Counted from the first letter of the stretch, positions 31,445 through 64,000 are shown. The stretch is 64,000 nt of DNA from Candidatus Omnitrophota bacterium (GCA_026387335.1 JAPLLX010000004.1:77955-141954), one strand, 5' to 3'. Numbers and translations are program-made. Notes: a model not told the origin generated them from the letters alone.

Positions 31445-31445
31445 T

Positions 31446-37075: not shown

Positions 37076-37080
37076 AGTTT

Positions 37081-39409: not shown

Positions 39410-40096
39410 TTAAACTCTTAAAATTCTGGACAAACCCATAAGATCTGCCCTTTCTAAGTCCATGCCGATACGATATCCGTCACCGTCACGGCCTGACCAG
39501 ACTGCCAGCCCCCTGGCGTAAAGCGGCTCTCCTTTATCCGGTACATGCAGCCAGGCCTCCAGCGGAGTATTCACTTTCAGCTCCTGCTTAAGCGCCAGGC
39601 CTAGGCCTTTAGCGCTTATGTCGCTGGTTTCAGCCTGCATCTCTACCCCACTATTAAGATCAAGGAGCGTTGCCGGAAGCCTTACGTTAAACCTCTGGAA
39701 TATCCTGCGGTCTTCCATATTCTCGCCTCCTTCTTTTTTCGCCAAACTACTCTCCCCGCCTTTTATAATCTCCATCGGGACGCTATCATAAACAAACTTG
39801 TAGATCTTCTCTTTATCCGGGCCAAGTAAATCCGTAAAATAAAGGCCGTAGGTATTATAGCCTTCTACCTGCTTGTGCCAGGCGACCCAGGCCTTAGCCC
39901 GGATAGAAACTCCTTCGGATAGGGTAAGGTCAAACTTTACGTAGGTATCCAAGGCAAGTTTTAAATTCAAAATAACTTGCATGCCTTTAAAATTAATATC
40001 CTTAATCTGACAGGCTACTTCAGAGAGAGCGCCATCCAGCTTAATCTTGGCCTTTTTATTTACCTGCCATCTTGATAATTTCCTGCGTTCCTGCAT
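39410..40096 (-). CDS. Tandem PilZ-domain protein (c-di-GMP receptor-like)
   Basis: Two halves each with RxxxR and D-I-[SN]-x-x-G motifs (ERRKLSR...KDINFKG; DRRIFQR...SDISAKG). Confidence 0.6.
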   Translation of the reverse strand: MQERRKLSRWQVNKKAKIKLDGALSEVACQIKDINFKGMQVILNLKLALDTYVKFDLTLSEGVSIRAKAWVAWHKQVEGYNTYGLYFTDLLGPDKEKIYKFVYDSVPMEIIKGGESSLAKKEGGENMEDRRIFQRFNVRLPATLLDLNSGVEMQAETSDISAKGLGLALKQELKVNTPLEAWLHVPDKGEPLYARGLAVWSGRDGDGYRIGMDLERADLMGLSRILRV

Positions 40097-40453
40097 TTAT
40101 GCGCCTCTCCACCATTGTTTAACTAACTCGCCGGGAAAATTCTCCTGAACATACTGGCCTATCCTGTTCTTTACCGCTTCTTCAATCCGGTTAAAAGAAA
40201 GGCCATAGATATTTCTTTCGCGCGCGTTATCCTGCCAAGCTACGTGCGCTCCGGCATTAAATACTAAATCTTCAGCCAGAGCCAGATTAAAATTTGAGAA
40301 AGCTTCGGGAAAAAGATTCTTGTTCAAAGAAACGCGCATACCGCGGGTGCTGATGTCTTCCACAACACAAGGAATAGGCCTGACCCCTTCTTCAAAGGTC
40401 AACTCTGCTTCTTGATTGATCTGCCACCGCGCTACGCTTCTACGTTCTTCCAT
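40097..40453 (-). CDS. PilZ-domain protein
   Basis: 118 aa; ERRSVAR (RxxxR) and EDISTRG (DxSxxG) motifs. Confidence 0.65.
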   Translation of the reverse strand: MEERRSVARWQINQEAELTFEEGVRPIPCVVEDISTRGMRVSLNKNLFPEAFSNFNLALAEDLVFNAGAHVAWQDNARERNIYGLSFNRIEEAVKNRIGQYVQENFPGELVKQWWRGA

Positions 40454-40535: not shown

Positions 40536-43500
40536 TTATTTTATTTCATCCGTCATTTTTTTCCCAGGCGGCGCGTGTATTAACCTTAAAAGAAAAAGCC
40601 CTATTTCCCCCAACAGCTCTCTACCTAACTGCCAGCTTATCTTATTACTATTCATTGTAACCGGGCTAGAGATTGATACTCTCCTTATTTCAACATTTAA
40701 TCTTCGGGTATCTATTGCCTGTTCGGGCTGCGGCCCGGTTTTTACTTCCCCGCGCGTCGTCGCCATCGCTCCAAACAGACCCACCACCGGCGAGCTGGAA
40801 AGGATAAGGTAAATTTCCGAGCCTAATTCCTCTTGCAGCGATTGCGCGCCTAATCTAACATTCTCGCTTTCATCACTCTTCCACTGCTGGATATAATCAA
40901 TTATTAACTTCTTAATGGCTAAACTTTCTGTTTCTCGGAATAACCGGCTAATCTTTGGAGCATCATTCTGGTACTTAAGCATACCGTGCATCTTCCAACC
41001 AAGGTTCCCTGAAAAATTCCCCCATATTCTTTCGGGTTCTATTTCAACTAAATAATCCAAAGCCGTATTGGTTCCTCTCTCCCCTTGATGATCCAGGGCG
41101 ATTTTATCAAGTATCCTCAAAGCTTCTTTCATATTCAACTTTTTAATCATTTCAGCGATTCTTTCAATACTGTTGTATTTAATTAAAATACTACCGCTGT
41201 TTTCCCTGAAGAAGAGAATCGCCTCAACAGCTTCCCGATAAGGAAGTTCAGCTAAAAGGGCCATTGCTTCCATCTGGATGACATCTTCTTTAGCGCCCTG
41301 ATAATCTTTGAGCTTGCCAATAACTTCCTGAATATCCTTTCTATTATTAAATATACTGTGCATATTCCTTATCTCTTGCCAAATGTCGTTAAATTTTAAA
41401 AGTTCATCTAAAGTATGAGGTATTTTCCCTTTATAGTATTTACGCCTATTCTCTTCCCAGGGAAGAAAGGTATAGAAGTTTTTATACCCAGGAACACTAT
41501 CTCCAATGTTTAAAGTAGCCAGGATCTTATTCTGATGAAGCCACATGAATTCGGCAATACCGCATTCATCGCCTTTATAGAATTGTGTCTCGGGGGAATG
41601 TGCGGCCATGATAAAATCGGTATAGTATGTTACTGCCGGAGTACTTAAATATAGGTAAACATCTGGCTTAGCGCTTTGTAGAAGTTCTATAAAATCCTTA
41701 AGCATCACTCTTACATAACCAAAGAAATTGCCCCTGATTACCCACCAGGTCTTTCCTTCCTTACTCCTATAGAGCAAGATTTGGTATTTCTTTGTTGAAG
41801 CGGCTCTTAATTCCTCTAAGGTTGGCGGTTGGATAAGAAAAGGCTTTTGAATATCGCCGTAGTCCAACTTAAGGGCAGCTGGATTATCAAATTCTTTGAG
41901 TACTTCGGTAAGAGTACCCGGACCTTCCTTTCTTACCTTTGGAAGTATTATTTTTGGCTTCGCAGAAGACAGGAAAAATCTTTTTTGAAATTCTTCGCTA
42001 AAATTACGTTCGATTATCTGCCAATCAAGTTCTAACGCTCTGCCTCCCGAACTACCATCGTAATCGTAAGGCGACTTCTTGAGTTCGTGGGGGAAAAATA
42101 AAATTTTTATTCCATCGATATCTTCTGTTATGTAGCCCTGTAAGTTAAATAATTTGTTTTCTTTACTAACTGGCGAGCTGGACTGCGGCGCTAGGGGTAA
42201 GCCGGAATTAATTGTTGCGGGCACTCCGCTAACATCAACCTCGCTATCCTTAATAAGCACAAAATTCGTATCAGCTAAAAGGTCTTGAACGTGGATAACC
42301 CCTTCTTGACTGCGCGTATAAAGATATATACGTGAATTTTTAGGCTTCTTTGAAAATTCCAGTACAGGAGCGATAAGCCGGCCATTTTCTTTCAAATGAG
42401 GAAGAATATTTTTAATTCCTCCTTCTGTTATAGCCGCGCTAATTACAATCACATCGAATACCTCACGAAGATTCCTATTCAAATAGTCAAATACGTTTTC
42501 GGTGATTACCTTTACATTAGTAACGCGCTGCCGGACGAGGTTTTCTCCAGCCTCTTTTGCCACTTCTTTGATCAATTCAATACCTATTACCTCTCCCTCT
42601 CGCCCCACCTGGCGGCTTAAGATTGCCAGCGAATATCCGCATCCAGAGCCAACCTCAAGAACACGTTCGCCTAATTTAGGATTAACATTAATCAGCATCC
42701 AATAGATTAACGCAGGCTGTGATGTTGTAGAATCATTGCCAGAAAGATTAATTGCTTCATTGAGATGCGCAAGATGTCGCCGGGCCTGCGGTACAAAGTA
42801 GAATCTCTTTACGGCGCGGAAAGCTTTCCAAAGACGCGGACTATATTTAACCCATAAACCCAAAACCGACTTAACATTTATTAATAGCCTCTTCTGAGAC
42901 CGACTTGCTTGAATACGCTCGGACAACCTATTAAACCATTCTCTTACCGGCGAACTGGAGCGATCAAACGGTGAGGCGGCGGGTTTGGTTGCCGGCGAGC
43001 CGGAGCCGCTATCTTTCCCCTTTTTCTTCTTTTGGCTTGCCTCAAGACGCAGGTTGACGATACAGAGTTTCTCTTCTACTTCATCCAATATTAGCCTGAG
43101 TTCTTGGATTTTTGAATCATGGTTACTGACTTCTGCCGAGAGTAGCGCCCTGTCTTCCTGAAGAACCTGATATCTCATTTCGTATGTGGGAAGTAAACTT
43201 AAAAACTCATCACGCGCATAATTCTGATAATTACTCCTGAACATAGCGATGGCTTGTTTAAAACCTAAGATGATTTCGCTTAGTCTCTGGATTTTCAACT
43301 CAACTTTTTGGATACGTAAAGACAACTCCTTTTGTCTCCTTTCCCATGCCTGGCGGTCCTGACCAGATAACTCCTGCTGGACACGCTGTAATTCTTCCAA
43401 TTTTTCCCTACCGGTTATAAGTTGATATTCCAGCGCAGCTGCCTGCTCTTTAAGTCTAGAGATAGCTTTCTTGTTAAGGGGCTTTTGGTAAAATACTGTC

Positions 43501-46500
43501 CTATCGAATAGTTCTACCCGATAAGAACCACCTAAACGTGGATTAATAATAATTACAATCCTCTTCATTGTTCTGTTCGATAATTCAATGGTCCGGTCTA
43601 GGACAACTTTGGGCTCTCTGCGCCGGTGCTGTCTATAAATCGGCGAGCTGGAGCGGTCCACCGGCGAGCTGGAGACAATGAATTCTTCCCATAATATCGG
43701 TTCTTTCAAGCGGTCATCCCGGCTGACAATCAAACCATGCCTATTCCACAATAAACGATCCAACTCATCATTCAATCTTCCAAAATCATAGATTCTATCA
43801 GGGCCAACTAAGGGTAATAGAAGCCTTAAGTACGCTTCCGTATTACTGGTAATATTAAAATTGTAACCAAAGAATACCCCTTGTAATTGGTAATCTTTGA
43901 TTGCCGTTATGATACCTAGGGCTTTAGCTATACCTTTATATACATCGTGGGGGCCGATATGAAGAGGCAATGGCAAAAACTTGTGATTTTTTATTCCTAC
44001 AAACACACACAAGCTACATCCACTGATACAAGTGGTATAAAGAGCTTCTTCAGCATCATCTTCTATCAATAAATTGTTCGGGTAAATCTCATGCATCATT
44101 TGGCCATCATCGAATTGACGAAACTTTCGGTCAAATTTTACAAAATCCTTTCCGTCAAAGAAATACGAACAACCTCGTTTTAGTTCATTATTCACTACCA
44201 TAGCATCTAAACTAAGGTCTATTAAATACCTTCTGCCCATATCAATAAGATTCTGCCTCGGGGATTCGCGGCTTGCCGACGAGCTAGCGGATTCTTTTCT
44301 CCCACTGAATAACCTGTTATGTTCTTCAAAAACAACCTCTTCGACGCGCGTGTACTGTTTCCAAAGCTTGATGGACAAGACATTCGCCATCCATAAAAGA
44401 CTTAGGGTATTCAATCTTTCCTTTTTTTGTCGCAACGAATCTCCAACGGTATCTCTTATTTGCTCCATTTCTTCGGAATTGAGCGGCGGTATCAGCTTAG
44501 CAAAAACATTGCTTATGGCTTTTTTCACTTGCTTCACCGGCGAACTGGACTGAGCCAGTGGCGAGGCAGTAGAATGTAAACAAGACTCCACTACTGACTC
44601 CAATATTTCTATTTGTTTTTGTTCTGGTAATGTAAAAAGGTAGGGGCTAATTAAAAAGCGCATTAAGGAATGGTCGGCTATAAGAATATACTCCGGAGGC
44701 GCAGTAGCCATATAATACCTAGTCAATATAAAACGCTTTGCTAACTCTTTCCTTATCCCGGAAATAGCCAGGCCATAATCATCGCCATACAGTAAAGAGA
44801 TTGCCTTGGTTAATCTTAATGGCCGCATTTCGCTAAGCTTGGAATGTTCCTCTCGAACAAAACTATCAATTAAGTCAAATTCTACTTTAAACCTTTCAGT
44901 TAATGCTTTCGTTATTCTGCCGATATCAGCCGCATCTATCCTTTTCATCTTAGGAAACAATCTAACTGATAATAATTCATTCAACACTGCTATTTTTATC
45001 TTATCTTTTATATCACTAGAGACGTCTATCGGCGAGCTGGTAGGACTAGAAATTTGTTGTGGGCTTAAAGCCTTAAGGCCTACTGCTATTGCCTCTTCTA
45101 TTTTTCCAACATATTCATCGAGGTTTATGGGATCTAGAATCGTAGTTAGCGTTAAATCAGGTAGGTCGAGTTTGCCGGCAGCCATTAAAGTGTTCAGGGT
45201 TAACTGAAAGCGCAAGGAAATACCTGGCTTAAAACATTCTTTATTTAACCACTTTAAAAAGGATACGAATTCCTGCGGGGTAGAGCAAGGCGGGATAAGA
45301 ATACTCTCTTCTTCCTGTGTGTCAGTCCTGTCAAAACTTATTAAACCCGAATATTCCAAAGCAAAAATTCTATCATCGAAAGCACTCTCTTTCTTATAAT
45401 CTAATTTTGCGCTTATAGTTAGCGGTAACCTGGAATACCGGGCGCCAGGATCAATTTCTTCAAAGAAAACCTGAAGCAGCCTGATTTCTGGCTTAGAGAC
45501 GATCAGATGCCCGGTAGTTTGGCAAACGCGGAATATTTTTTTCAATGCCTCTATATCGTTTATTTCTTTCAGTAAGAGAGGGTAGATTATTCTTTCTTGA
45601 TAACCAGAATTTAAAAATGCACCCCTGAATTTCACGGTGTGGTTTGCTATGCCTTTTAATAACTCTAAATCTTTTACTCGCTTTAACCAAGAGGGAAGAG
45701 TTGTCTGTTCGTAGCTACTAGTATAATCGCCTCTTTTCCTGTGGTCAGAGATCAGCAAACTAACTATCCTTAATTCTTTTATGTCTTTTATTAATCTTAA
45801 CCAGGAATAAAGCGGGCACCTTTCATAACTCCAGGAATCACCATAATTTTCTCTAAAATCAAAAATAAGGGCACTAACTATCTCTAACCATTCTATCCCC
45901 TTATCCTCTAAGTATTTTCTCCATCTATGAGAAATGCCTGCATAATGACGTCGGGCATCAGGATTCTCTTTGTATCCCTCTATAAAATCATCTTCGAGCG
46001 CTTTCAATAATTCTTCTTTTCCTACTGGCGAGCTGGAGCGGAAAATCTCTCCTAGCTTAATCATAAACTGCGAGCTGGGGAAAACGGTACTTTCAGGCGT
46101 CACGACTGGTTTAAGATGCCTTAAAATTTCTTTCCAGTCAGCCCAGGGATGAAATTTGTTATAGAAATTGGGGTGCTGTAAACGGTCGTCAGGTAATTCA
46201 TTTAGATTACTTACGCTAATATAAAAAACATTCCCCGGGCCAAAAATGAGACGGGTAGTCATATAACCGAATTTAGAGGATTCGAAGAGTTGCTGACCGC
46301 GTCCCATAGCCGAAATATAATTATCGTATGCATCAAACTCTTCTTTCGACAAATTCTCCTGAATTTTCTCCCAGAGTTCCCGCTGGTATCTAAATAGCCT
46401 TTTGAATCTTTCATGAATTTTGTTTACCTTGTCATCCTCAAAGATTTCCGCTTTGCTAACACATAACGGTACGACAGCAAAAGTCTTTATCAAATCGGTA

Positions 46501-58500: not shown

Positions 58501-61500
58501 CGATACCATCCGGCAAAAATTACTACATTCTTATTATCCGATTCAAGCCCAAGGTTGCGCCATTTAAATACGCTCCAGTCTCCGAAGGCATTATCAATGC
58601 CTTGCTCTCTTAATGCTTTTCTTATATCAAACCGTATTTTAAACATGTCGGATAACATCATCAAGGGCATCCCTGTATTTACTTTCTGCTGAATAATAAC
58701 CCCATTAATATAAAGCTTAGGCGCAAATCCCTGAATTTTAACCAATTGCCAGCTATCTATATTTACTGCCCGGGCTCCTACCATCTCTGTAATCAACTCC
58801 ATACCGACAGCCTTCTGAGGATACATCATTGAGCCGAGGCCGCTGGGTATTTTAAATACCACTCCGGGATACCTATCTGCTGTATACACTTTCATCAGGC
58901 AGCCTTCGTCTATAAACTCAACCCCTTCTTTTCTTTGTCCGGCTTCGGAAAGGGTGGCGGTCACCTCATTTAAGTTCGTTAAAAACATTCTTTGTTCATC
59001 TACCACCGCATCTACCGGCGAACTGGAGTAGATAAGCCGCAGGCCCTTGTTTTTAACTTTAATATTCTCTCTTATTTGCTCAATCCTGTCCGACCATTCC
59101 GGCTCTATTTCCAATGCTTTTCTTAGGTCTTCTTCCGCCAATTTCTCTTTCCCTAATGCCACAAAACAATCAGCCCGTTTAATATAAGCCCTGCTCTCTT
59201 CTGGATTAATTTCCAAGGCTTGATTAAGGTATTCCACGGAAGTCCTTACATAGGATTTAGGGAAACCGGGTTTATCTACGCCTTTTAATATGAAATCGGC
59301 TGCGTGGATAAACCGCAGCGCTGACCATTCCGTAAGGCTTAGCTCTTTAAATTTCTTGTGTAGGCTATACTCAATAAAATCGTCCTGCAACACCCAATAA
59401 TTATCCCTCTTGATAAACAGCTTATTTATATCAAACACATCGCTCGTAAACCCATAAATGAAGTCTGCCATTACTTTTCTTTTGTCGGATAACTCAAAGA
59501 GCGACGCAGTATGAAAAAACATTTTTTCGGCGTTACAACTTTCTCTGACTAGGATTAAAGAACTATTAAATCCGACGGCTTCTCCGATAATATAGAAAAT
59601 CTCCGCTAACGAAAAGGGAGTAGCTGCCTTAAAACGAATAGCGGACTGCAGATTAAAGTTATGTTCGGAGCGCTTGAACTTATCGTTCAGAGTTAAAAAT
59701 ATTTCATTTAAGACAACTCTTGCCTCAATATCAACCAACTTCTCTTGATCTATTCTCCCTTCTTGAAAATCCTGCCGGGCTTTTGTTAATGCCGCGTAAC
59801 TGCGTTTTAATAAGGGAATCCCTTTCTTATCCCGGAGAGTATCTATCCAACCCTTAAAATCCTCAAAAGCCTTATCGCTATAACCTAATAGCCTTATTAG
59901 TTCTTCAGCCTTCAGGTATGGCAACTGCAGGTCAAGCTTAATAACATTATTAATTTTTGACAGAGGGCTGGAAGCGGGCAAAAGGCAATTAAAGCCGTCG
60001 GCGGTTAACACCTTATAAACATACTCCGGCGTAATTTTAATATCTTCCAACAGACCGTAATCCGTAATATCCCAACAAGTATATTTAAGGTTTCTATCGG
60101 CTTTCTGTAAAGTATATAAAAACATTCTGTTTTTGCTAAAAACCACTTCCCTGCCCCTGGTCTCATCCACGAGATGGAACAGTAATTTTTTATCCAGATA
60201 AAGCTTTCTTTTTATCTCATTTCCATTCCTGTCCCGGCCTTCTATAATTTCCTCTATAGGCCAAGAACGATCCGGGACATTACCTTTCTCTATTATAATG
60301 GATTTCTCCTTATCTCCTCTTAGCATCCTGGCAATATCTTTCATCCTCCCCATCTCTATCTTTACCTCCCAGGCCAATGCATAGGCTAAAGTATAACTTC
60401 TTTCCACTTCGTATCCGCGGATCACATACCCGGATGGCCCGACTACCAGAATATAAGTCTTATCCCGGCTTTGGTCTATATACATAATATGGCAATAATT
60501 ATTGGCTTCACGATAAACCAGGCCTTCTTTTAAGGTCTTCCGGATAATCTCCCTCACTTCTGGCTCATTAGTGATTATGCCGTTTTTGGTTTGGGCCCCA
60601 AAATACGAAAGGCCGTTAGGCTGGAATTTGATTATATGTTCTTTGATATATTCCCAGCCAAAAGGATTTTTCCGCTCCTGGCTGTTGTAGCCTCTAAAGA
60701 GTACGCTAACATCTTTAGCCTTGATAATATCCTGCAAATTTCCGTTTTTAGGGAAATTTAAATCAAAACCTTTCCTACTTACGGCTTCTTCCAGGCTAAA
60801 CCAACCGCTCAGCCTTTTAGAAAATTCCGCTTCTTGAAAAGCCCGGATTACTTTAGCCCTTGCCTCCTGACCATCTGACTCTTCCCGCAAGATACTCAGT
60901 ATAGTCTTCTCTATCCCGGTGACCCTTTTCTCGTAATCATTCTCGTTTTCTTCCTTTCCCGCATAAAAGTAAAATTCCGCGGGTTCTGTTTCCTTTAATC
61001 CTCTGTTCTTTAGTGCCCTTTTAATCTCTTCTTTGCCTTCTTTAACCTGTTCAGCCTTTTGGATATTGCCTACATAAACTACCAAAAGCAGCTCTTGCGC
61101 ATCAAAAATTGAAAACACCAACTGACCGTTTAAGCAACTAAAGCTCTCCCTATATCCGGACTTCCTGGCTAGCTCCTCTAACCTAAGGCTGGTTTCTTCA
61201 GAATCTATATCCCAACCGTTGATTAGAGATTCTACTAATAAATCCTTGGCGCTATATGTAAAATCTATTACCCCTTTATCAAACAGATAAGAATATTGAG
61301 GATAGTATATATAAAGATCCGGTAATGATTCTTCGGCTATATCCGCCATTTTATTCTTAAGGATAAGGGTTAGTTCTACATAGAGCTTAAAATCTCTTTC
61401 ATCCCGCTCTCTAGTTTTATCTTTCTTATCCAATTTCTTACTTTCCCGTTCCTTTAATTCTAATAACCCGGCAAGACGGTTCCTCAAAGCATCTTTGTCT

Positions 61501-64000
61501 AAAATTAAACTTCTTAAGATAAGAAGAATTTCATCTCTAATGAAATACTTCTGCTTTCTCATCTCTATTAATCTATGCACAAATATACCCCAGGCATCTT
61601 CGCCTTTAAGTAAACCGATTACCTGCGTATCTAATTCGTTGTCATCGGGAAATTTAACTTTAAGCTCAAGCCAGAGGTCTACTGCTTTAGCTATACTCCC
61701 TGCCCCCAGTTTTATATAGGCCTTAACTAATGCCTTCTCTAATGACTTTTTATAAGACTTGGGAAATCTTATATCCGTAAAGATCTGGTTGGCCCTAAGA
61801 CCTTCAGCCTTGCTAACAAATGCTTCATATGAGCCTTTGAGTTCCGCTTCTTCCCAATAAGAAAACACCTCGTTATAATGAAACTCTGCCAGGATGGTTA
61901 TGTCAAGACGTTGCCTTTCTGCAATATTTTTGGCTTTTTCAAAATACTTTCTTGCCTGTTCAAAGTTCTTTTCTTTAACCGAAACTTGGCCTAACGAATT
62001 CAATGCCGAAATCGTTAAAGTCAGGCTTTTTAACTTTTCCGCGTACTCTTCTAACAATAATGCGAGTTCTTTGGTTTGGACTAACTTATCGTCTACGTAA
62101 TATGTACTAATTAAATGGAGTAAGTTGTGTATAGTTTTATTCAGCCCATCCGTATCCCTGTCTTCAAAAGCGTATTTATCAATCCGGCTGCGGATTTCTC
62201 CGGCCTCGTCTTTTACCGGCGAGCTGGTGGCAACACCAAAACCCCCAACTATTGCGCCTACCGAAGAGCTGGCCTTATTATCAACCCGGGCAAAAAACTC
62301 ATTAAATTCTCTCGCGTAAGTTGCGGCGGTAAATAATGCGTTGATAACACTCTTAAGCCGCACTGAGGTAGCCTGGTAAGTGCCGAATTTAAGCCGTTCG
62401 TATTTCCACATCTCAATAGCTCTAAATACTATTTCACGGTATGCTTCGGGAGACCGATTCTCAGGAATCAAGGTATTACCTTCTAAATTAATCGGAATCC
62501 CCTGGCTGTGTATGGTGCCTGCGCGGTATGGAGGCGCTAAAACTAATGCCCTGGGAGCCGGGACCTCAGTAAAACCGCTTGCCTCGCTATCCTCGTCAGA
62601 ATCTAAAACTATTATATCTAAAGCCGCTAACATCGCCTGCTTTACCTTAGAGTCAAAATTATCTATAAAAATAAAATTTCCCTGGCCGCTCTTCTTTTCT
62701 TTTAATAATTTTTTCTGGAGGCGGCGTAATCTTTTTGCTATATCTACGCTCCGGCCATCCGTATTCAGGATAGCGCCGCCAATTAATACATCTGCGCCTG
62801 CATTAATCCAGGCCCTAATATTATCTTCCCTCCAGGCCCTCTCCAGGTTAATTTTTTCAGGTGTCAGGCGGCCGACATAACCTATGGTCAACCTGTTAGG
62901 GTCTAAAGCAAAAATCTCCCTATATTCATGCATAATATCTTTTTCTGCATCTAAATACCTCACTGTCGCAGCCCTCGGGTCTTCCGGCCTGCAGCCTTCG
63001 TCTTCCCATCTTACATAAGCCCGTACCCTGGCCTCCTCTTCAATAAGCGCTTTTAAAAATTCCTCTTTCGCTTTTTCCCCGCTTTTCAATACCTGTATAG
63101 CTGTAGGCCGAATAGAATCAACCTCTCCTTCCTTAAAAGTATGTCCTCTGACTAACATATTTAAATAATCAAGGAATAATTTTTCTAACCATTTAAGATA
63201 AGTGCCGTTAGTTACGCCGATAATATCCAGTTCGCAATCAAATAACCTCATAACGTCAAGCGCGTGCTTATAAGATACTGCGCCTCGCCAATTCGCGGTG
63301 CGTAAACCACCGGTAGTGATATCTAAAAATTCTTTTCCGCTACAAGGATCTCGGCGCAAGAAAATCTTATCCAGAAGCCAATCATCGCTAATCCCGGTCA
63401 TCCACTTTACAGCCTGCCTATTCCCCCATGTATTTTCATAACAATGACGATTAAAATAAGTATGCGTTACCATAGCCTTTAAAGCCTGCTGCTTAAGGTT
63501 GACTATCGTAGGTAATAAATCCGGCATGGCAAATTTTAAAAGGCCGTTATTATTTTCATCGTCAGATATATCTATGAAAACATTAACTAATGCCGACTGA
63601 CCGTCATTGGCAAAAATTACCACATCTTTGCAATTTAGGCCATTCTGCTCTATAAACCAGGCTATAAAACGTAAGGTTGCGAGGCTGTAGAAACGACTGA
63701 AATCTCCCCAGCTTATCTCATTATCAGGAGCCTCATAATCATATACTACTTTGGTATAGTTATGGTTAAGTCCTTCGGGCATATGTTTTAGGAAAACTGC
63801 CTCAGCCCCTGCGGGGCTAACTCCTCTTTTAACTTCAACTTTCACCTTCTCCCCATTAAATTTACCATCAAAATCCATCATAAAATCTGCTTCGGCCAAA
63901 CGCCTAACATTATTGATTTCCGTAGAATTATTCTGGCCAAAGTGTAACTCGCGTAAAGCGCCGGATTTATCCCGGATGTATCCATAGTCAGCTTCAATAT
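40536..64000 (-). CDS. Giant multi-module protein (>7,800 aa, 5'-partial in window): chain of diverse enzyme-like domains separated by SSSPV linkers
   Basis: Single uninterrupted frame of 23.4 kb; frame still open from 63900 to the window edge with no start codon, so the TTG at 63899 is internal; multiple recognisable catalytic motifs (see the domain sub-features). Confidence 0.85.
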   Translation of the reverse strand, partial: IEADYGYIRDKSGALRELHFGQNNSTEINNVRRLAEADFMMDFDGKFNGEKVKVEVKRGVSPAGAEAVFLKHMPEGLNHNYTKVVYDYEAPDNEISWGDFSRFYSLATLRFIAWFIEQNGLNCKDVVIFANDGQSALVNVFIDISDDENNNGLLKFAMPDLLPTIVNLKQQALKAMVTHTYFNRHCYENTWGNRQAVKWMTGISDDWLLDKIFLRRDPCSGKEFLDITTGGLRTANWRGAVSYKHALDVMRLFDCELDIIGVTNGTYLKWLEKLFLDYLNMLVRGHTFKEGEVDSIRPTAIQVLKSGEKAKEEFLKALIEEEARVRAYVRWEDEGCRPEDPRAATVRYLDAEKDIMHEYREIFALDPNRLTIGYVGRLTPEKINLERAWREDNIRAWINAGADVLIGGAILNTDGRSVDIAKRLRRLQKKLLKEKKSGQGNFIFIDNFDSKVKQAMLAALDIIVLDSDEDSEASGFTEVPAPRALVLAPPYRAGTIHSQGIPINLEGNTLIPENRSPEAYREIVFRAIEMWKYERLKFGTYQATSVRLKSVINALFTAATYAREFNEFFARVDNKASSSVGAIVGGFGVATSSPVKDEAGEIRSRIDKYAFEDRDTDGLNKTIHNLLHLISTYYVDDKLVQTKELALLLEEYAEKLKSLTLTISALNSLGQVSVKEKNFEQARKYFEKAKNIAERQRLDITILAEFHYNEVFSYWEEAELKGSYEAFVSKAEGLRANQIFTDIRFPKSYKKSLEKALVKAYIKLGAGSIAKAVDLWLELKVKFPDDNELDTQVIGLLKGEDAWGIFVHRLIEMRKQKYFIRDEILLILRSLILDKDALRNRLAGLLELKERESKKLDKKDKTRERDERDFKLYVELTLILKNKMADIAEESLPDLYIYYPQYSYLFDKGVIDFTYSAKDLLVESLINGWDIDSEETSLRLEELARKSGYRESFSCLNGQLVFSIFDAQELLLVVYVGNIQKAEQVKEGKEEIKRALKNRGLKETEPAEFYFYAGKEENENDYEKRVTGIEKTILSILREESDGQEARAKVIRAFQEAEFSKRLSGWFSLEEAVSRKGFDLNFPKNGNLQDIIKAKDVSVLFRGYNSQERKNPFGWEYIKEHIIKFQPNGLSYFGAQTKNGIITNEPEVREIIRKTLKEGLVYREANNYCHIMYIDQSRDKTYILVVGPSGYVIRGYEVERSYTLAYALAWEVKIEMGRMKDIARMLRGDKEKSIIIEKGNVPDRSWPIEEIIEGRDRNGNEIKRKLYLDKKLLFHLVDETRGREVVFSKNRMFLYTLQKADRNLKYTCWDITDYGLLEDIKITPEYVYKVLTADGFNCLLPASSPLSKINNVIKLDLQLPYLKAEELIRLLGYSDKAFEDFKGWIDTLRDKKGIPLLKRSYAALTKARQDFQEGRIDQEKLVDIEARVVLNEIFLTLNDKFKRSEHNFNLQSAIRFKAATPFSLAEIFYIIGEAVGFNSSLILVRESCNAEKMFFHTASLFELSDKRKVMADFIYGFTSDVFDINKLFIKRDNYWVLQDDFIEYSLHKKFKELSLTEWSALRFIHAADFILKGVDKPGFPKSYVRTSVEYLNQALEINPEESRAYIKRADCFVALGKEKLAEEDLRKALEIEPEWSDRIEQIRENIKVKNKGLRLIYSSSPVDAVVDEQRMFLTNLNEVTATLSEAGQRKEGVEFIDEGCLMKVYTADRYPGVVFKIPSGLGSMMYPQKAVGMELITEMVGARAVNIDSWQLVKIQGFAPKLYINGVIIQQKVNTGMPLMMLSDMFKIRFDIRKALREQGIDNAFGDWSVFKWRNLGLESDNKNVVIFAGWYRPRLFKETLNSRPEEPIPPLSDKEIDGVLDRLIKYKDFKTDKGFKMEVKDYKEFNSYCWAANKADFQLAARYWKVIFEGKAHNEALSEVIGTMKYIYGSSSPVGATVCTSSSSITIVPADSDMVTKIEHKSEEEYSEIYRQLIQDFFEDIYTQIGYSGVSHFGRYYINALNSLNEDIVPLFKAHYFNYPAVYQLLLSQALKFNADYFTRSIEGQRLYFSDSYELFNQFPEIRRTHNGLGAESLTKTPSEIVYKSRLLHLKRYMPEKLNNKTPLLLIYSWIGGSHIFDLIRRSMIQYLLGRGFEVYLTDWQGVTQENKDLATFEDYIAEILNSYQKIKQLTGEDKIDVGGYCIGGTLSLVFTSLYPQLVRKLTIFTGAATVKVGKDAGGLIYALTQAALESGVVDDIFKQSGGIFPGLSLDTFFNLIQPLKNEEIVHAGIANLLNRYWQGQVSDNYLVLWSYLTARHVGSAHLRYLKDIIQRDLLAKGLFEVGGRRVDLSQITQPCLIVGALGDHIVSWPCVFETANLIGTPKDKILLALAKRGHLGGVIYNELFAIFADFLKEGPCISSSPVRSLVLSRPKISVELNLQCGISSGFWFANESMSFTCKGCPLAIFFVKDAGIYLGHIDLDDFKKGTLIEEWNKQTTYGIRSIFQDSEQILIAHQDQPTVFANRLRQSFNQRFFKGQERKIIIDPAPKDIEIKYMTAYVWPQLNETLVQYEQKLGDGKYKIVRENLYADYSSLLSSSPMDSRVKNALRSPAELARQRRQLDPSVFSPFIFVPDRLPFDPWGNEAGLPPLKANQIFYRTWPPPAAGWGWEKTSSPADIWQFTSSYIFHNYPLAKKIIEIGISQYTEAAGRLREVFPSDTRIIVTDIAPAALKEVKVRYPGIDTALDDIYQPDLVLYKDADVIYAIRPYPGLARYMLKVALFVGADLILAIPPGDEMDTLSWISLPDTTIFNRAGSLFVYKVRDFVNMHKGKIEGDSHEVVSASPIRSSSSVYVTTKMSALYLTIYLAGFVAKLNRNKNEIDFRNPREAPVFIEKLHSGEISIADINEYTFDQDEIKGLEIKQLVQHLKNTLDYLKTHSSSSVNVGAMETVAGRLKVLDSYLFGYLLSAMGLNNRKELVIIDVGCGKGAITTIELNNYARTALKDKKAKVIALDSNEEAFEDVCCSDVGKIDFIETDFRSVVYTRLRADVARCMNVIRWFNQDDFEDNVAALARSLSEGGILLVGNNDIETPEILAVLVYQKSNGSLLRRQSLFGFLGERLDQRFLETIKGFPHNDRIITEFRRAIPAARSDFQNGYALSLDDSLRRRGYTVINEEDYKLFVRDSSSPLTEEGVIKEFTLFRKKKEPIEVLLERIGVEMEHNQSFFNLNFQLGYNQDRHIGYLSFYAYSDTRTIEPHHWFVSVGFRQERYSYLFLYALFNIIPQTAELKDYTLHQTSSVYHPFMAKVLQKVGFTPDPEFRGTKCILGKTDEQGKVPVFLKGQNGRQAFESRMKNKGTASDFRIFQISDKPLDDPRAVVVIDAPYIVANLKLNKVLLHISSSSVEGYSTKEEVIQRRKAFETPYQIFGSTFFWNYSTHFKYLENILKSMIEERASKENKFLYLWSTGCGLGMEAGAIAVIVAKLFRDYMLNIGNWDIKIFATANNLALLEEARRGEYLVEEVVVGRNRGIEEGLPYGYELRDYFNSKGDIYRLKPEVRELVNFSYLDLEDNKSGLIIKDTDVIFCQWVFEYLEEEIRYHAAQALVSSLNEEGFIFVSGMEEPSFSGLVKEGILAAYHEDEIGEGYIYRKKNNTSSAVEKQRIFNPAHSSIPPVDRRAEAVNQYGEIKIASLVTVKLIGNKYVLTLIDKGASFDIWQIDAQRLMPDKGNNIIRGPPEFSFILMITPGQEELGLDPETKQPYTANVKINPPAIFIHPYFFELCDNWKEEILIELLEFMLANFSPWVPFEPSDEQAKGIEPTSSPIHKNISAAANDLELRKIMQERFDSAIGEYFRAIISDFDGTLFEGIFQAEMFAAMDRNLEIEKDFAIATGGSPEYIETVLRPQLKPWILNGEKLNRVHLYHSGGAVGYNMGTREIYYEIIFADELRKEIARFIKTGPALVCREPSWQAYFTKPKYSDALDFSYWSASLTDHKITLVPPKQNLIAYRQRHLEELFLKYQIAAHAKGTSIAIEILPLEVNKGLPLKDLSLRLGVPIDAIVKIGDRAGRRGNDFELLQGKLSFSVDEYDPDSSNQICVPLINGLKRIPATIWLMNELTCRSSSTVRRNGSIAVLDSGEGGRKGFDEIRRRLPHKYIYYWNMQQAPLGSKPAAEIQRLTCEAIRDIIEKYDPFKIVIACGTITAHFPEEARELLKKYRIEVFGFIDSAVKAALALELPQSKKIGVIATARTIQSGAFEDALIRGNSELSVFSKALPDAVVKTIERTMREGEHVAIQAWGKAEIKRLIKQPLEELKSLGIKVLILGCSHYSSIKDLIEEILGKDIKVIDASEELVNFLADKLNNGTSSSINSVNTEELYNRHEVLWSRIWKNRRLPQSEFLGRLLNEELIKKGQKVLDLGCGCRQDAVILAQMGCLVTATDISPVCLDYMSKEASKHNITDRLFARIQDFLKPFPFPDEEFDVVIANASLYFLNDSQMRHTVDEIRRVLKPGGKVFVIVYSKSDKRYGRGLRINEDLFVIHKEIIYRFFDYESLGKAFEGFTNIEIKNARVKSQNLDISKMLELRARKPGFVLSSSPVVNLINPSPAKRLQLDAIAYAQRAKDDTESGEGNFNGIWDDIHEASKIAEELEGIDIGLAYEIYDFLIKVGDSNASLAAYLAARRLIANYPYLARDLLLKLRSSKFPGLASFHKLDIHVLIGLCELSKVGSSPVVRSAIPKNWEEAKKLPLIEQEDAEPWLNIYKLWTVLKEISKITKECLGIPEAIKNVELFGSALYRAQDGRVNMKDIEDIDVNLIVDRKALSTDTGLISIGDIGDKYRELLFNHREKNVNFLYPFNEVWDICIESGRERKIIGICACEEGFWWGRSGLCAYIDKLICDLEKRYREGFWILQLINIPSRFTYPSNIEKLSKEDLIDLREFLNYLQDKIIEGEIVITEEMIKDRFSPPHLIIAPYGTSSPAETSNKYRFCLFNTGPEGKEGGVFGELLKVYPLILDSLKNGDTPKIRALSWGAVRKIGGLFTLAEPHRMVIAFLVCVKKEGIKLGQSNFEVIAFDSSREDLDKAFEGAYLEEHFQSLSENSFSAKEIEDFREEYFNKVADGTWKVKKEVNDFVKIQTDLGEEEIFYLILYNYLEYILEDKQEGHLPINTFIIASELYRRLRPGGYLLTTGKKRFRFFPELRLIHKAKATFLEKGIHSIDIFLYQYWPITDFEAWFKENYARLEQNLFKIMSGWDIMLPSFAYKFAKRIHRHGVREFLNYPYFMHPLGVTLDEVDKILESEKFKNNLIALGLPLNVYIAATLLHDVIEEYRDEGKSVPWLWIQLYIRLFINSGFSFRKTNQIYRILEIVTKRPGETEKEYLNRILAGRSSYHAAAQIIKVFDRIYNLTLPRFQWTAQRATDYAEDIRNIIEESRALNDELKDYLMGYFNKIYIELFVKELDKEAVRADSRLSKGLSSSPALVIQRDEGYWLNTGLLESILKMVRSGIKLVGSCRYLQDESGFVPLAAVDDIDFLLPMNYSESWRDLTSNIISKLKNHGVKEISRYAPFVKIHFVDPGAEATIHYIDLRSVGSSEYLDIAKRDLDKTFVYIQEPGLGDNLSWVKMYLSLEYYFGTDPEEHTIHLNEFYTYWSNKQLMAEARERIKSGSFNSLLEMISGLSYEEKLEKIRNKLYPLASSPVEMTKECAVFLDNFEIQQGNTILRLSDGCYHGCIHCIVNSSRKKIIHMPKDLANDIIQLLKKALPSGIMIRLDHNNDPSFYPYLKYVLEELREKGVELDHFLTKGWLPGDANTKRRIQEILQERLLKTAGISYNLLSPEVANVLLNSANPRAIENILKRYLAHYTDLIKTFAVVPLCVSKAEIFEDDKVNKIHERFKRLFRYQRELWEKIQENLSKEEFDAYDNYISAMGRGQQLFESSKFGYMTTRLIFGPGNVFYISVSNLNELPDDRLQHPNFYNKFHPWADWKEILRHLKPVVTPESTVFPSSQFMIKLGEIFRSSSPVGKEELLKALEDDFIEGYKENPDARRHYAGISHRWRKYLEDKGIEWLEIVSALIFDFRENYGDSWSYERCPLYSWLRLIKDIKELRIVSLLISDHRKRGDYTSSYEQTTLPSWLKRVKDLELLKGIANHTVKFRGAFLNSGYQERIIYPLLLKEINDIEALKKIFRVCQTTGHLIVSKPEIRLLQVFFEEIDPGARYSRLPLTISAKLDYKKESAFDDRIFALEYSGLISFDRTDTQEEESILIPPCSTPQEFVSFLKWLNKECFKPGISLRFQLTLNTLMAAGKLDLPDLTLTTILDPINLDEYVGKIEEAIAVGLKALSPQQISSPTSSPIDVSSDIKDKIKIAVLNELLSVRLFPKMKRIDAADIGRITKALTERFKVEFDLIDSFVREEHSKLSEMRPLRLTKAISLLYGDDYGLAISGIRKELAKRFILTRYYMATAPPEYILIADHSLMRFLISPYLFTLPEQKQIEILESVVESCLHSTASPLAQSSSPVKQVKKAISNVFAKLIPPLNSEEMEQIRDTVGDSLRQKKERLNTLSLLWMANVLSIKLWKQYTRVEEVVFEEHNRLFSGRKESASSSASRESPRQNLIDMGRRYLIDLSLDAMVVNNELKRGCSYFFDGKDFVKFDRKFRQFDDGQMMHEIYPNNLLIEDDAEEALYTTCISGCSLCVFVGIKNHKFLPLPLHIGPHDVYKGIAKALGIITAIKDYQLQGVFFGYNFNITSNTEAYLRLLLPLVGPDRIYDFGRLNDELDRLLWNRHGLIVSRDDRLKEPILWEEFIVSSSPVDRSSSPIYRQHRRREPKVVLDRTIELSNRTMKRIVIIINPRLGGSYRVELFDRTVFYQKPLNKKAISRLKEQAAALEYQLITGREKLEELQRVQQELSGQDRQAWERRQKELSLRIQKVELKIQRLSEIILGFKQAIAMFRSNYQNYARDEFLSLLPTYEMRYQVLQEDRALLSAEVSNHDSKIQELRLILDEVEEKLCIVNLRLEASQKKKKGKDSGSGSPATKPAASPFDRSSSPVREWFNRLSERIQASRSQKRLLINVKSVLGLWVKYSPRLWKAFRAVKRFYFVPQARRHLAHLNEAINLSGNDSTTSQPALIYWMLINVNPKLGERVLEVGSGCGYSLAILSRQVGREGEVIGIELIKEVAKEAGENLVRQRVTNVKVITENVFDYLNRNLREVFDVIVISAAITEGGIKNILPHLKENGRLIAPVLEFSKKPKNSRIYLYTRSQEGVIHVQDLLADTNFVLIKDSEVDVSGVPATINSGLPLAPQSSSPVSKENKLFNLQGYITEDIDGIKILFFPHELKKSPYDYDGSSGGRALELDWQIIERNFSEEFQKRFFLSSAKPKIILPKVRKEGPGTLTEVLKEFDNPAALKLDYGDIQKPFLIQPPTLEELRAASTKKYQILLYRSKEGKTWWVIRGNFFGYVRVMLKDFIELLQSAKPDVYLYLSTPAVTYYTDFIMAAHSPETQFYKGDECGIAEFMWLHQNKILATLNIGDSVPGYKNFYTFLPWEENRRKYYKGKIPHTLDELLKFNDIWQEIRNMHSIFNNRKDIQEVIGKLKDYQGAKEDVIQMEAMALLAELPYREAVEAILFFRENSGSILIKYNSIERIAEMIKKLNMKEALRILDKIALDHQGERGTNTALDYLVEIEPERIWGNFSGNLGWKMHGMLKYQNDAPKISRLFRETESLAIKKLIIDYIQQWKSDESENVRLGAQSLQEELGSEIYLILSSSPVVGLFGAMATTRGEVKTGPQPEQAIDTRRLNVEIRRVSISSPVTMNSNKISWQLGRELLGEIGLFLLRLIHAPPGKKMTDEIK
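42255..42810 (-). other. Giant ORF module: protein-L-isoaspartate O-methyltransferase (PIMT)-like
   Basis: FYFVPQ, TTSQP (compare PIMT TISQP), RVLEVGSGCGYSLAILS (compare VLEIGTGSGY; 42631-42665), DVIVISAA. Confidence 0.6.
43665..44220 (-). other. Giant ORF module: CheD-like (chemoreceptor glutamine deamidase-like)
   Basis: TCISGCSLCVFV (compare CheD LGSCVAV) and HKFLPLPLHIGPHD (compare H.MLP); 43996-44048. Confidence 0.3.
46050..46980 (-). other. Giant ORF module: radical SAM core
   Basis: LSDGCYHGCIHCIVNS: CxxxCxxC (46881-46920). Confidence 0.5.
47010..47640 (-). other. Giant ORF module: minimal nucleotidyltransferase 2
   Basis: LVGSCRYLQDESGFVPLAAVDDIDFLL: GS-x(n)-DxD. Confidence 0.45.
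47700..48285 (-). other. Giant ORF module: RelA/SpoT-type HD hydrolase domain
   Basis: YFMHPLGV (compare YITHPLAVA), AATLLHDVIEE (48100-48135), IIKVFDRIYNLTLP (compare LIKLADRLHNMRTL). Confidence 0.6.
49200..49800 (-). other. Giant ORF module: minimal (Pol-beta-type) nucleotidyltransferase 1
   Basis: LFGSALYRAQDGRVNMKDIEDIDVNLIV: GS-x(n)-DxD signature (49633-49710). Confidence 0.5.
50400..50940 (-). other. Giant ORF module: class I SAM methyltransferase (TehB/TPMT-like)
   Basis: WSRIW, VLDLGCGCRQD (50801-50840), FDVVIANASLYFL, VLKPGGKVFV. Confidence 0.55.
51000..51690 (-). other. Giant ORF module: glutamate racemase (MurI)/Asp-Glu racemase-like
   Basis: IAVLDSGEGG (compare IGVFDSGVGG), VIACGTITAH (compare IACNTAS), IGVIATARTI, VLILGCSHYS. 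Confidence 0.55.
51795..52530 (-). other. Giant ORF module: HAD-superfamily (IIB-like) phosphatase
   Basis: Motif I AIISDFDGTLFEG (52441-52530 region), ATGGS, motif IV VKIGDRAGRRGNDFELL. Confidence 0.55.
53220..53850 (-). other. Giant ORF module: CheR-like methyltransferase
   Basis: FFWNYSTHFKYL, LWSTGCGLGMEAGAIAVIV (compare CheR IWSAGCSTGEEPYSIAM), IFATANNLALLEEARRGEY. Confidence 0.5.
54720..55215 (-). other. Giant ORF module: class I SAM-dependent methyltransferase
   Basis: Motif I VIIDVGCGKGA (55094-55127), acidic beta2 end (ALDSNEE), motif III-like LSEGGILLVG. Confidence 0.6.
55590..55995 (-). other. Giant ORF module: Rossmann-like UPF0146-type domain
   Basis: IIEIGISQYTEAAGRL...IIVTDIAP...DDIYQPDLVLYKDADVIYAIRPYPGL. 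Confidence 0.35.
56805..57741 (-). other. Giant ORF module: PhaC-like alpha/beta-hydrolase with Cys lipase box
   Basis: VGGYCIGGTL (GxCxGG box, 57441-57464), PLLLIYSWIGGSHIFDL, GDHIVSW (PhaC-like DHIxxW His motif). Confidence 0.6.
59070..59220 (-). other. Giant ORF module: TPR repeats
   Basis: YLNQALEINPEESRAYIKRADCFVALGKEKLAEEDLRKALEIEPEWS. Confidence 0.5.
62460..63899 (-). other. Giant ORF module: GT-B fold glycosyltransferase-like (GT4/GT5-like)
   Basis: DVVIFANDGQSAL (compare DVVHAHDWQTAL), YVGRLTPEKINL (compare VGRLxxQKG), acidic E-x7-E-like region. Confidence 0.5.

Follow-up and report, generated by a model that had tools for sequence, protein, structure and literature searches.

The giant gene at the right-hand end of a 64,000-nucleotide (nt) stretch of DNA from a Candidatus Omnitrophota bacterium (GCA_026387335.1 JAPLLX010000004.1:77955-141954; the whole stretch is referred to as the window) encodes a chain of mutually unrelated cassettes in a single reading frame, separated by a short junction motif that is conserved both as a peptide and as nucleotides. 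The junction is the unit boundary for the insertion, deletion and replacement of cassettes between closely related genomes, and across species the cassettes are distributed as a mosaic in differing orders. A punctuated in-frame cassette architecture with exchange at a nucleotide-conserved junction appears to be undescribed. We think that the gene is probably an in-frame cassette array, or polyprotein, of complete and independently folding units, and that the junction is a recombination point and possibly a peptide signal as well.

The giant open reading frame (ORF) is a real gene under selection. A six-frame scan found a minus-strand frame without stops from window position 63998 to 40539 (23,460 nt; 7,820 codons), whereas the runner-up open stretch in all six frames was 2,325 nt. 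With its stop codon at 40536-40538, the ORF occupies 40536..63998 on the minus strand. The initial annotation had called this a real giant gene with a frame of 23,364 nt; the stop-free stretch is indeed there, but that figure was counted from the first in-frame TTG and falls short of the full frame. Because the frame is still open at the right edge, only the C-terminal part of the gene is inside the window, its 5' end lying past that edge. The amino-acid composition of the 7,820-amino-acid (aa) translation is ordinary. We compared the gene with a giant-gene locus on a 476-kb metagenome contig (L082), the ORF of which has 7,442 stop-free codons, extends 431 aa beyond that of the window and is still open. 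The ratio of nonsynonymous to synonymous substitution rates (dN/dS) was 0.18-0.38 in the blocks common to the two, indicating purifying selection on the giant gene.

Both sequences come from metagenome assemblies, and many contigs of metagenome-assembled genomes (MAGs) break at this locus, as might be expected if the frame or the mosaic were a product of misassembly or if the gene were a decaying pseudogene. We find such an artefact hardly credible. The stop-free length in both sequences and the dN/dS values speak against it, as does the agreement of two independent assemblies: L082 shares many junctions with the window and crosses them at 82-96% nt identity. The junction repeat described below, at 14 nt, is shorter than the usual assembler k-mer sizes, which together with the agreement of L082 argues that the giant frame is not an assembly chimera. 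In addition, every adjacency at a branch point of an assembly must exist in some genome.

Successive modules of the protein are separated by the junction peptide [S/T/A]-S-S-P-[V/I/L/A]. SSSPV, which had been pointed out earlier as a linker, occurred 10 times against 0.012 expected from composition shuffles, and SSP[VILMA] occurred 23 times against 0.49 expected. Including degenerate forms (SSSSV, SSSTV, TSSSI), there are 29 junction sites, dividing the visible protein into about 27 segments with a median length of about 250 aa. In related giants the median junction spacing was 249 aa, and no residue was conserved beyond the five-residue motif. The segments are unrelated to one another and not one repetitive family, as had been claimed: a self-BLAST of the giant protein found no internal paralogy at E<1e-3. 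Running Pfam and NCBIfam on the translation, as the initial annotation had suggested for Pfam, gave about 12 different families, no one of which was dominant by copy number. Pfam envelopes span the segments almost end to end, indicating that each segment is one complete enzyme-sized unit.

The junction is also conserved as DNA. The consensus is TCC-AGY-TCG-CCG-GTR, in which the three serines are encoded by three different codons in a fixed order, and nucleotide conservation is limited to about 14 nt around the junction. Allowing up to three mismatches, the 14-mer had 26 matches in the window against 3.3 expected; 23 of these lie inside the ORF, all on the sense strand and in frame, and no copy with two or fewer mismatches was found in the remaining 40 kb of the window. 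The core GCTCGCCG was found 65 times in frame versus six times in other frames or on the other strand, and across loci the motif was counted 44 times in giant ORFs versus 0 times in 317 kb of flanking DNA. At 174 junctions from 30 related giants, the serine preceding the proline was encoded by TCG in 64% of cases, compared to 12% for all serines and 21% for other Ser-Pro pairs, and the proline was encoded by CCG in 73% of cases, compared to 35% overall. The codon-family pattern TCN-AGY-TCN was present in 75% of junction SSS runs and in 21% of other SSS runs. A switch between TCN and AGY takes at least two substitutions, and protein-level selection therefore cannot keep this pattern. Where the encoded residue differs (S to T, P to S, V to I or A), the variant departs from the common template by a single base. 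Related species have variants of the junction, including GCC-GCC-TCG-CCG-CTG-GC (AASPLA) and GGC-AGC-TCG-CCG-GCG (GSSPA); a single variant is dominant in each gene, and the core C-TCG-CCG is common to all of them.

These properties bear on the possibility that the motif is purely a peptide signal, for protease cleavage, modification or docking, with uniform nucleotides that reflect recent common descent and with recombinants formed away from junctions being non-functional and lost. The giant protein of one fully syntenic locus (P0001) would fit such a signal, as it holds SSSP[VL] across several codon sets. However, TCG, CCG and TCN-AGY-TCN are conserved across species in which synonymous sites are otherwise saturated, and the variants that change an amino acid retain the nucleotide template. 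Together with the exchange data described below, this makes a signal acting only as a peptide unlikely in our view.

The same codon preferences could be expected from a translational or RNA signal: a ribosome pause at the rare UCG-CCG (minor tRNAs, slow proline) that would allow a module to fold, or an RNA processing site. TCG, a minor serine codon (12% of serines), is strongly favored at junctions, as is CCG, and the signal would be placed exactly between folding units. With the ribosome paused at the junction, however, the final 30-40 residues of the completed module are still in the ribosomal tunnel, and a pause leaves the fixed upstream TCC-AGY codons, the breakpoints, and the codon-variable motifs elsewhere all unexplained. 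We found no Rfam match and no Shine-Dalgarno-like sequence, and the motif is not followed by a consistent start codon; we consider a signal of this kind very unlikely. Three further candidates were rejected. A Chi-like hotspot was ruled out because neither the 317 kb of flanking DNA nor the rest of the window (40 kb) contains the motif; internal translation starts were ruled out because there is no Shine-Dalgarno-like sequence and the codon after the proline is often a non-start codon; and a known RNA element was ruled out as there is no Rfam match.

Cassettes are gained, lost and replaced at the junctions. L082 matches the window gene in seven blocks at 82-96% nt identity, and between the blocks there is either unrelated sequence or nothing. 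The two genes differ by seven cassette-level gains, losses or replacements. Numbering residues from the first codon in the window, L082 has replacements of aa 592-1342 and of aa 3378-3797, carries an additional cassette (about 390 aa) where the window has the junction at aa 4568, and has different cassettes from aa 6485 onward; aa 1659-1931, 2827-3164 and 5448-5988 are present in the window only, as three clean cases of presence versus absence. All 13 of the 13 block edges are within 6 aa of a junction (chance P ~5e-18), and nucleotide identity between the two genes stops within or directly after the 14-mer. Where a cassette is missing, one copy of the junction is left behind. The alternative cassettes of L082, which include HATPase_c, other methyltransferases and a receiver domain (Response_reg), carry the same junction. 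Two BLASTP alignments that crossed junctions were apparent exceptions and proved on inspection to be spurious extensions. Where aa 2827-3164 are missing (L082:8060-8100), the junction TTCAACTTGCCGCTC (FNLPL) is a decayed copy of the motif.

The quality of the nucleotide motif is related to variability. Homology-dependent exchange predicts better copies of the motif at variable junctions than at stable ones, and the prediction holds: variable junctions had a median of one mismatch to the 14-nt consensus versus four for stable junctions (one-sided Mann-Whitney p = 0.0014). A motif acting purely as a peptide would not account for this relationship, nor for the finding that novel joins always restore exactly one copy of the motif, which should be rare among random illegitimate joins filtered by selection. 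The number of synonymous substitutions per site (dS) in the shared blocks ranged from 0.034 (aa 5989-6485) to 0.418 (aa 4569-5448). This spread of more than 10-fold indicates that the cassettes have separate histories and that some were transferred recently between lineages.

Across species, the cassettes form a mosaic. The P0001 locus (L001) shows complete synteny with the window, and the proteins encoded by the flanking genes are 75-92% identical in the two. Over at least 6,500 aa, the P0001 giant has a single cassette in common with the window, of about 250 aa, at 55% identity and in another position. Other window cassettes recur in L054, L044, P0003 and P0004-P0006 with different neighbors. 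For cassettes in common at 55-66% identity, similarity spans from one junction to the next in every alignment. Testing the ends of high-scoring segment pairs with a strict regular expression for the motif gave an enrichment of about 2-fold, in a test that misses degenerate junctions.

We propose that identical in-frame short repeats would serve as microhomology and that recombination would resolve within the repeat, with a neighboring common cassette as the probable homology anchor. Resolution within the repeat would always restore the frame and would leave a single copy of the junction. Only well-matched repeats would recombine, and an active array would thereby keep its junctions uniform in nucleotides.

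Alternatively, exchange might be carried out by dedicated site-specific recombination at the 14-nt junction, integron-like with in-frame cassettes and possibly with circular intermediates. The sharply bounded core of about 14 nt in non-conserved surroundings, the strict specificity for strand and frame, and the clean insertions and deletions of single cassettes are all properties that such a system would have, and the one dominant, lineage-dependent variant per genome looks as if it were co-evolving with a recombinase. No integrase, recombinase or transposase was found in the adjacent 40 kb or in the inspected syntenic loci, however, and dyad symmetry is not obvious in the core. Folding was slightly better for linker windows than for random ones, but linker windows are also more GC-rich, and no attC-like structure was apparent beyond what GC content may explain. 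There were also no orphan cassettes or motif copies outside giant genes. We regard a dedicated system as a distinctly improbable source of the exchange.

Distant giants have punctuation motifs of their own. Large proteins with a module at about 30% identity to the glycosyltransferase (GT) module of the window protein lack the SSP motif, and each has its own recurrent motif: GARL[AS] in P0045 (21 copies), RAE[VLI]R in P0090 and P0048 (14-15 copies; P0048 is annotated as Omnitrophota), RSExR in P0130 and P0141, and RxS[LM]TG[SA] in P0008 and both of its large neighboring genes. In seven of eight distant proteins a motif precedes the predicted start of the GT module by 20-65 aa, indicating that the distant motifs also mark module boundaries. 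In the DNA of L086 and L087 the motif codons are varied (CGG, AGA and CGC for arginine; TCA, TCT, AGC and TCG for serine), and the motif is therefore kept as a peptide in those lineages. In L087:924-23538, three adjacent large ORFs (2,995, 2,647 and 1,859 aa) have one motif, RxS[LM]TG[SA], with varied codons; punctuation in that genome is thus not limited to a single ORF. GARL[AS] (P0045, P0068) and [SA]ASPLA (L027, L034, L047) both have leucine before a small residue. A full-text search found no relevant literature on SSSPV, RAEVR or GARLA.

The persistence of these motifs through varied codons, and their being specific to lineages as viral polyprotein cleavage sites are, favor a function as a peptide signal, and cleavage of such proteins was proposed by West-Roberts et al. 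Since lineage-specific motifs kept through synonymous changes resemble the sites of viral polyproteins and MARTX toxins, processing is the most likely role for the junction peptide. By this analogy, we suggest tentatively, at somewhat under an even chance, that the junction may also be a peptide signal, most likely for processing of a polyprotein into separate enzymes by a cognate protease; alternatively, the peptide would be a neutral flexible linker. Among the explanations offered in the initial annotation, the polyprotein precursor gains some indirect support. The broader proposal, that Omnitrophota giants are in-frame cassette arrays in which a lineage-specific motif both marks where the polyprotein is cut and serves as the site at which enzymes are recombined among genomes, seems to us close to an even prospect. 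A variable array might provide a strain-specific arsenal of modifying and signaling enzymes for the host- or prey-dependent lifestyle of the ultra-small Omnitrophota. A peptide signal and site-specific recombination are each partly compatible with an exchangeable cassette array.

Several observations weigh against the interpretation of the gene as a cassette array that recombines, and is possibly processed, at its junctions. Exchange at nucleotide resolution comes from one genome pair (the window and L082), one of the breakpoint junctions (aa 1342) has a decayed nucleotide motif, and punctuation is not recognizable in some of the giants found at this syntenic position. If selection retains only those joins that fall at domain boundaries, this could add to the coincidence of breakpoints and junctions. 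The 14-nt motif is short for RecA-dependent recombination, and no recombination machinery was found in the 40 kb beside the gene or in the inspected syntenic loci. Processing at the junctions is proposed by analogy, and Pfam identified no protease domain in the 7,820 aa, P0001 or L082. Nor was there a signal peptide or transmembrane-like segment in the visible 7,820 aa, the N-terminus of the protein being outside the window.

The individual junctions, all on the minus strand, are given here from the right edge of the window toward the stop codon. Those that are breakpoints relative to L082 are TSSPV (ACCAGCTCGCCGGTA; 62214..62228), ASSPL (GCTTCCAGCCCTCTG, degenerate; 59961..59975), SSSPV (TCCAGTTCGCCGGTA; 59013..59027), SSSPV (TCCAGCTCACCGGTG; 58194..58208), SSSSV (TCCAGCTCGTCGGTG; 55506..55520), SSSPL (TCCAGCTCGCCACTC; 54495..54509), SSSSV (TCCAGCTCGTCGGTA; 53853..53867), TSSPI (ACCAGTTCGCCGATT; 52596..52610), SSSPV (TCCAGTTCTCCAGTA; 50283..50297), where L082 has its extra cassette, SSSPA (TCCAGCTCGCCGGCT; 47646..47660), SSSPV (TCCAGCTCGCCAGTA; 46023..46037) and SSSPV (TCCAGTTCGCCGGTG; 44535..44549). 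The stable junctions are SSSPV (TCTTCTAGCCCTGTG; 56787..56801), TSSPA (56031..56045) and GSSPV (49884..49898), in which the nucleotide motif is decayed, and SSSPM (56259..56273), SSSTV (51696..51710), TSSSI (50967..50981), TSSPA (ACCAGCTCGCCGGCG; 49140..49154) and TSSPI (ACCAGCTCGCCGATA; 45027..45041). Homology to the P0001 cassette starts at SSSSV (TCCTCCAGTTCGGTT; 55233..55247). The others are ASSPV (GCTAGCTCGCCGGTG; 46989..47003), perfect copies of SSSPV (TCCAGCTCGCCGGTG) at 43659..43673 and 40785..40799, further copies of SSSPV at 42945..42959 (TCCAGTTCGCCGGTA) and 42168..42182 (TCCAGCTCGCCAGTT), and a degenerate ISSPV in the C-terminal tail (40659..40673). A degenerate SSSSI (58161..58175) forms a doublet with the junction at 58194..58208, and SSSPI (43638..43652) forms one with the junction at 43659..43673. 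Doublets of this kind are frequent: two copies of the motif, one of them usually degenerate, are separated by 4-17 aa at aa 575/591, 1931/1942, 5973/5988, 6316/6320, 6478/6484, 6776/6783 and 6999/7014. Each may be what remains of a lost cassette (an "empty cassette"), or it may be a footprint left by the insertion mechanism.

Family matches support about 12 of the approximately 27 segments, fewer than the at least 20 enzyme-like modules claimed in the initial annotation. The visible chain begins with the last 591 aa of a GT-B-like cassette of about 810 aa (aa 1-591; 62226..63998, minus strand, as for all segments that follow), which is also found in P0004, P0005 and P0006 with other neighbors. 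We found no direct match for the proposed GT-B fold, but aa 1-591 align with regions of distant giants annotated as PF08323/PF00534, and the annotation of these relatives supports the GT-B identity transitively. An exhaustive HMMER search found 199 relatives of the GT module in 1.84 billion representative proteins, nearly all of them proteins of 800-7,300 aa. The next two segments contain TPR repeats identified by Pfam: aa 592-1342 (59973..62225), with TPR at aa 662-696 and otherwise no family match, is swapped in L082 for a HATPase_c-containing segment, and aa 1343-1658 (59025..59972), with TPR at aa 1603-1634 and no match for the rest, is common to L082. The cassette at aa 1659-1931 (58206..59024) has no family match and is cleanly missing in L082, which has a single junction motif there. 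It is followed by a PhaC-like Cys alpha/beta-hydrolase (aa 1932-2400; 56799..58205) that matches TIGR01836 at approximately aa 2044-2371 (1.4e-45), by a cassette with no Pfam match (aa 2401-2576; 56271..56798), by a short segment without a family match (aa 2577-2652; 56043..56270), and by a Rossmann-type module (aa 2653-2826; 55521..56042) with UPF0146 at aa 2673-2774.

Methyltransferases are prominent in the middle of the chain. Both a short cassette without a family match (aa 2827-2917; 55248..55520) and an S-adenosylmethionine (SAM) methyltransferase (aa 2918-3164; 54507..55247; Methyltransf_25 at aa 2959-3059) are missing in L082, and the latter is the cassette with 55% identity to one at another position in P0001/L001. 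After a cassette with no family match (aa 3165-3377; 53868..54506) comes a CheR-like methyltransferase (match at aa 3407-3598, E 2.4e-24) that extends to approximately aa 3630 and has a tail without a family match (aa 3378-3797; 52608..53867); it is replaced in L082, and a cassette in L054 is 64% identical to it. Next are a HAD-IIB hydrolase (aa 3798-4096; 51711..52607; match at aa 3833-4054), a glutamate-racemase-like module (aa 4097-4340; 50979..51710; match at aa 4104-4340, E 7.9e-34) and a second SAM methyltransferase (aa 4341-4568; 50295..50978; Methyltransf_25 at aa 4390-4487) with 55% identity to a cassette in L044. The segment at aa 4569-4701 (49896..50294), at whose upstream junction L082 has its extra cassette of about 390 aa, has no family match, and that at aa 4702-4949 (49152..49895), called a nucleotidyltransferase in the initial annotation, has no sequence match.

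The segment at aa 4950-5447 (47658..49151) contains a weak CheR-like Pfam match (aa 5028-5108) and an HD-like region at approximately aa 5250-5400, which had been called a SpoT-like HD hydrolase; an H...HD motif is visible, and the match in the PDB is weak (E 0.12). The next two cassettes are missing in L082: one has no family match (aa 5448-5666; 47001..47657), and the other (aa 5667-5988; 46035..47000) is radical-SAM-like. The radical-SAM assignment made earlier is consistent with a visible CX3CX2C motif, but the Pfam score for approximately aa 5694-5842 (1.7e-5) is under the gathering score. Three cassettes without family matches follow (aa 5989-6320, 45039..46034; aa 6321-6484, 44547..45038; aa 6485-6776, 43671..44546), and L082 differs from the start of the third to the stop codon. 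A single-sequence AlphaFold model of this third cassette, which the initial annotation had called CheD-like, had a predicted local distance difference test score (pLDDT) of 39. The remainder of the chain consists of coiled-coil-like sequence without a family match (aa 6777-7014; 42957..43670), a PCMT/PIMT-like methyltransferase (aa 7015-7273; 42180..42956; match at aa 7052-7251, E 4.6e-26), a cassette with no family match and 30% identity to an internal cassette of L054 (aa 7274-7734; 40797..42179), and a C-terminal tail (aa 7735-7820; 40539..40796).

These Pfam and NCBIfam searches bear out the TPR repeats, the PhaC-like hydrolase, the HAD phosphatase and the MurI-like racemase that were recognized in the initial annotation, as well as its count of at least four SAM methyltransferases (two Methyltransf_25, one CheR-like and one PIMT-like). 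Its two nucleotidyltransferases and its CheD-like deamidase gave no sequence matches. The NCBIfam scores were all under the equivalog cut-offs, indicating that the modules are divergent relatives and not orthologues of housekeeping enzymes. A sequence search of the segments against the PDB found TPR repeats and the one weak HD match and nothing else. In agreement with what had been claimed, the 7,820 aa contain no domains of nonribosomal peptide synthetases (NRPS) or polyketide synthases (PKS) (C, A, T, KS, AT, ACP; Pfam, E<=0.05) and no adhesin-type repeat domains (Pfam).

Giant genes are present at the same position in many Omnitrophota genomes. We gathered syntenic loci by anchoring on a conserved gene that follows the giant gene downstream and encodes a solute-binding protein (SBP). 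This gave 80 loci in GTDB genomes, all of them Omnitrophota MAGs; a few carry the label "uncultured Planctomycetales" in third-party annotation (TPA) assemblies, and SBP identity was up to 88%. Most of the loci with sufficient upstream sequence have a giant ORF that is open at the edge, and homologous giants carry Omnitrophica or Omnitrophota names. A word-indexed protein database gave 2, 1 and 5 matches for the giant protein. Many of the MAG contigs (loci L002-L081) terminate within or beside the giant gene, as expected if co-occurring strains vary in cassette content and thereby break the assembly. There appears to be a second architectural type at this locus: L008, L009, L049, L070, L076 and L056 have giant ORFs without the SSP motif at the same syntenic position. 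The first five of these have long mutual stretches at 21-39% identity, and the L056 giant has true tandem repeats.

In the 40 kb outside the giant gene, the genes are those of an ordinary bacterial chromosome and are all on the same strand as the giant gene. Two PilZ-domain genes (118 and 228 aa; 39410-40453, minus strand) are directly downstream of the giant gene, followed by a sugar-utilization cluster (26247-39254) with LacI, a ROK kinase, a coiled-coil protein, three GH2-like or unknown paralogues and an ABC transporter. Other neighbors are H+-PPase, ExbBD, a complex-I/Mbh-like module with Mrp-type subunits, GSIII, MnmG and a class II RNR. There is no tRNA and no Rfam family in the window. 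The order giant gene, PilZ, PilZ, SBP, two permeases, GH2/TPR is kept in L001 and many of the 80 Omnitrophota loci, and the conserved PilZ pair hints at a link between the giant gene and cyclic di-GMP. GH2 genes have been described as flanking giant genes (Nielsen & Lui 2026, bioRxiv 10.64898/2026.06.07.730766). The minus strand carries all family-supported ORFs of the window (1-64000), and the 64 kb have a negative GC skew throughout, consistent with a single replichore in which genes are strongly co-oriented.

The junction motif gives a concrete handle on how Omnitrophota giants are constructed, how they evolve, and whether they function as one chain or many. It provides an objective rule for cutting giants for structure prediction and annotation, and it makes the polyprotein question directly testable via peptide termini at the motif. 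The poor conservation of giants would be explained by turnover of cassettes and not by divergence of sequence, and cassette variation probably explains the contig breaks at giant loci in MAGs. Exchange at the junction would be a route by which bacteria trade whole enzymes inside one reading frame, which bears on how proteins evolve and on how fusion proteins may be engineered. If our interpretation is correct, the arrays would amount to exon shuffling in a prokaryotic form, or to an "integron of protein domains", yielding strain-specific enzyme arsenals, and the motifs would be the first rule by which proteins of 10,000 to 150,000 aa can be divided into functional units.

Published work places the giant chimeric ORF itself in a known kind. 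Omnitrophota have a class of giants with glycosyltransferases, methyltransferases, radical SAM, HAD, NUDIX and TPR/HEAT domains, including the "Archaeovorin" type (West-Roberts et al. 2023, bioRxiv 10.1101/2023.11.21.568195), as well as "multi-enzyme metabolic clusters" (Nielsen & Lui 2026); a protein of 39,678 aa is attributed to Velamenicoccus archaeovorus, as cited in PMC10066038. Such ORFs are common in Omnitrophota and "poorly conserved", with no mechanism given (Seymour et al. 2023), and Aravind's group described Omnitrophota giants as effector or signaling assemblies. The lengths used as criteria were at least 10,000 aa (the Nielsen & Lui catalogue) and more than 30,000 aa (the West-Roberts set). 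The window gene resembles these giants in phylum, in its very long ORF, in its poor conservation between genomes and in its tiling of enzymes (methyltransferases, radical SAM, HAD, GT/starch-synthase-like, TPR, HATPase and receiver domains). It differs in that Pfam found no HEAT, peptidase or NUDIX domain in the visible 7,820 aa, which also lack transmembrane helices. The published accounts of Omnitrophota giants describe neither cassette exchange nor any motif at linkers, junctions or cleavage points (the words "linker" and "junction" have 0 occurrences), and missing information on cleavage points kept West-Roberts et al. (2023) from splitting the proteins.

MARTX toxins of Vibrio and relatives are similar in being a long chain of unrelated effector enzymes whose content varies between strains. 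Their effectors are joined by short unstructured linkers, which an internal cysteine protease domain cuts after leucine, and the variation between strains arises by recombination. By analogy, the GARL|A and ASPL|A variants would fit a preference for cutting after leucine. The window arrays, in contrast, are far longer, and no RTX/MARTX repeats or Peptidase_C80 were found in the window protein, in the L082-specific segments or in the Pfam list of P0001. To our knowledge, MARTX linkers are not a fixed nucleotide repeat.

Integron arrays also consist of ordered, unrelated cassettes with a conserved core, have content that varies between close relatives, and gain and lose single cassettes. Here, in contrast, the cassettes are fused in one frame and the junction codes for protein, and the integron hallmarks, IntI in the adjacent 40 kb and attC hairpins between cassettes, were not found. 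In polymorphic toxins, a short in-frame motif likewise marks the exchange of modules (VENN in CdiA, PxxxxDPxGL in Rhs; Zhang et al. 2012, PMC3482391). In those toxins, however, one terminal or central module varies and the toxins have immunity genes, whereas dozens of unrelated enzymes are involved here. Pfam found no filamentous haemagglutinin, RHS/YD, VENN or PxxxxDPxGL domains, and what lies downstream is two PilZ genes and a sugar ABC transporter. Like the window gene, NRPS and PKS genes are giant and modular with modules that can recombine; the modules of the window are unrelated enzymes of a stand-alone type and not an assembly line.

The silent cassettes of Borrelia vls form a nearly continuous ORF with 17-bp direct repeats as bounds. 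There, as here, a short in-frame repeat bounds the cassettes that are exchanged, but the vls cassettes are alleles of one antigen. Viral polyproteins are similar in that independent proteins are made as one chain with a short, lineage-specific motif at every junction, and they are cut at picornavirus 3C, potyvirus NIa and flavivirus NS3 sites. In contrast to these polyproteins, the chain described here is encoded in a bacterial chromosome, and its junction is a recombination breakpoint as well.

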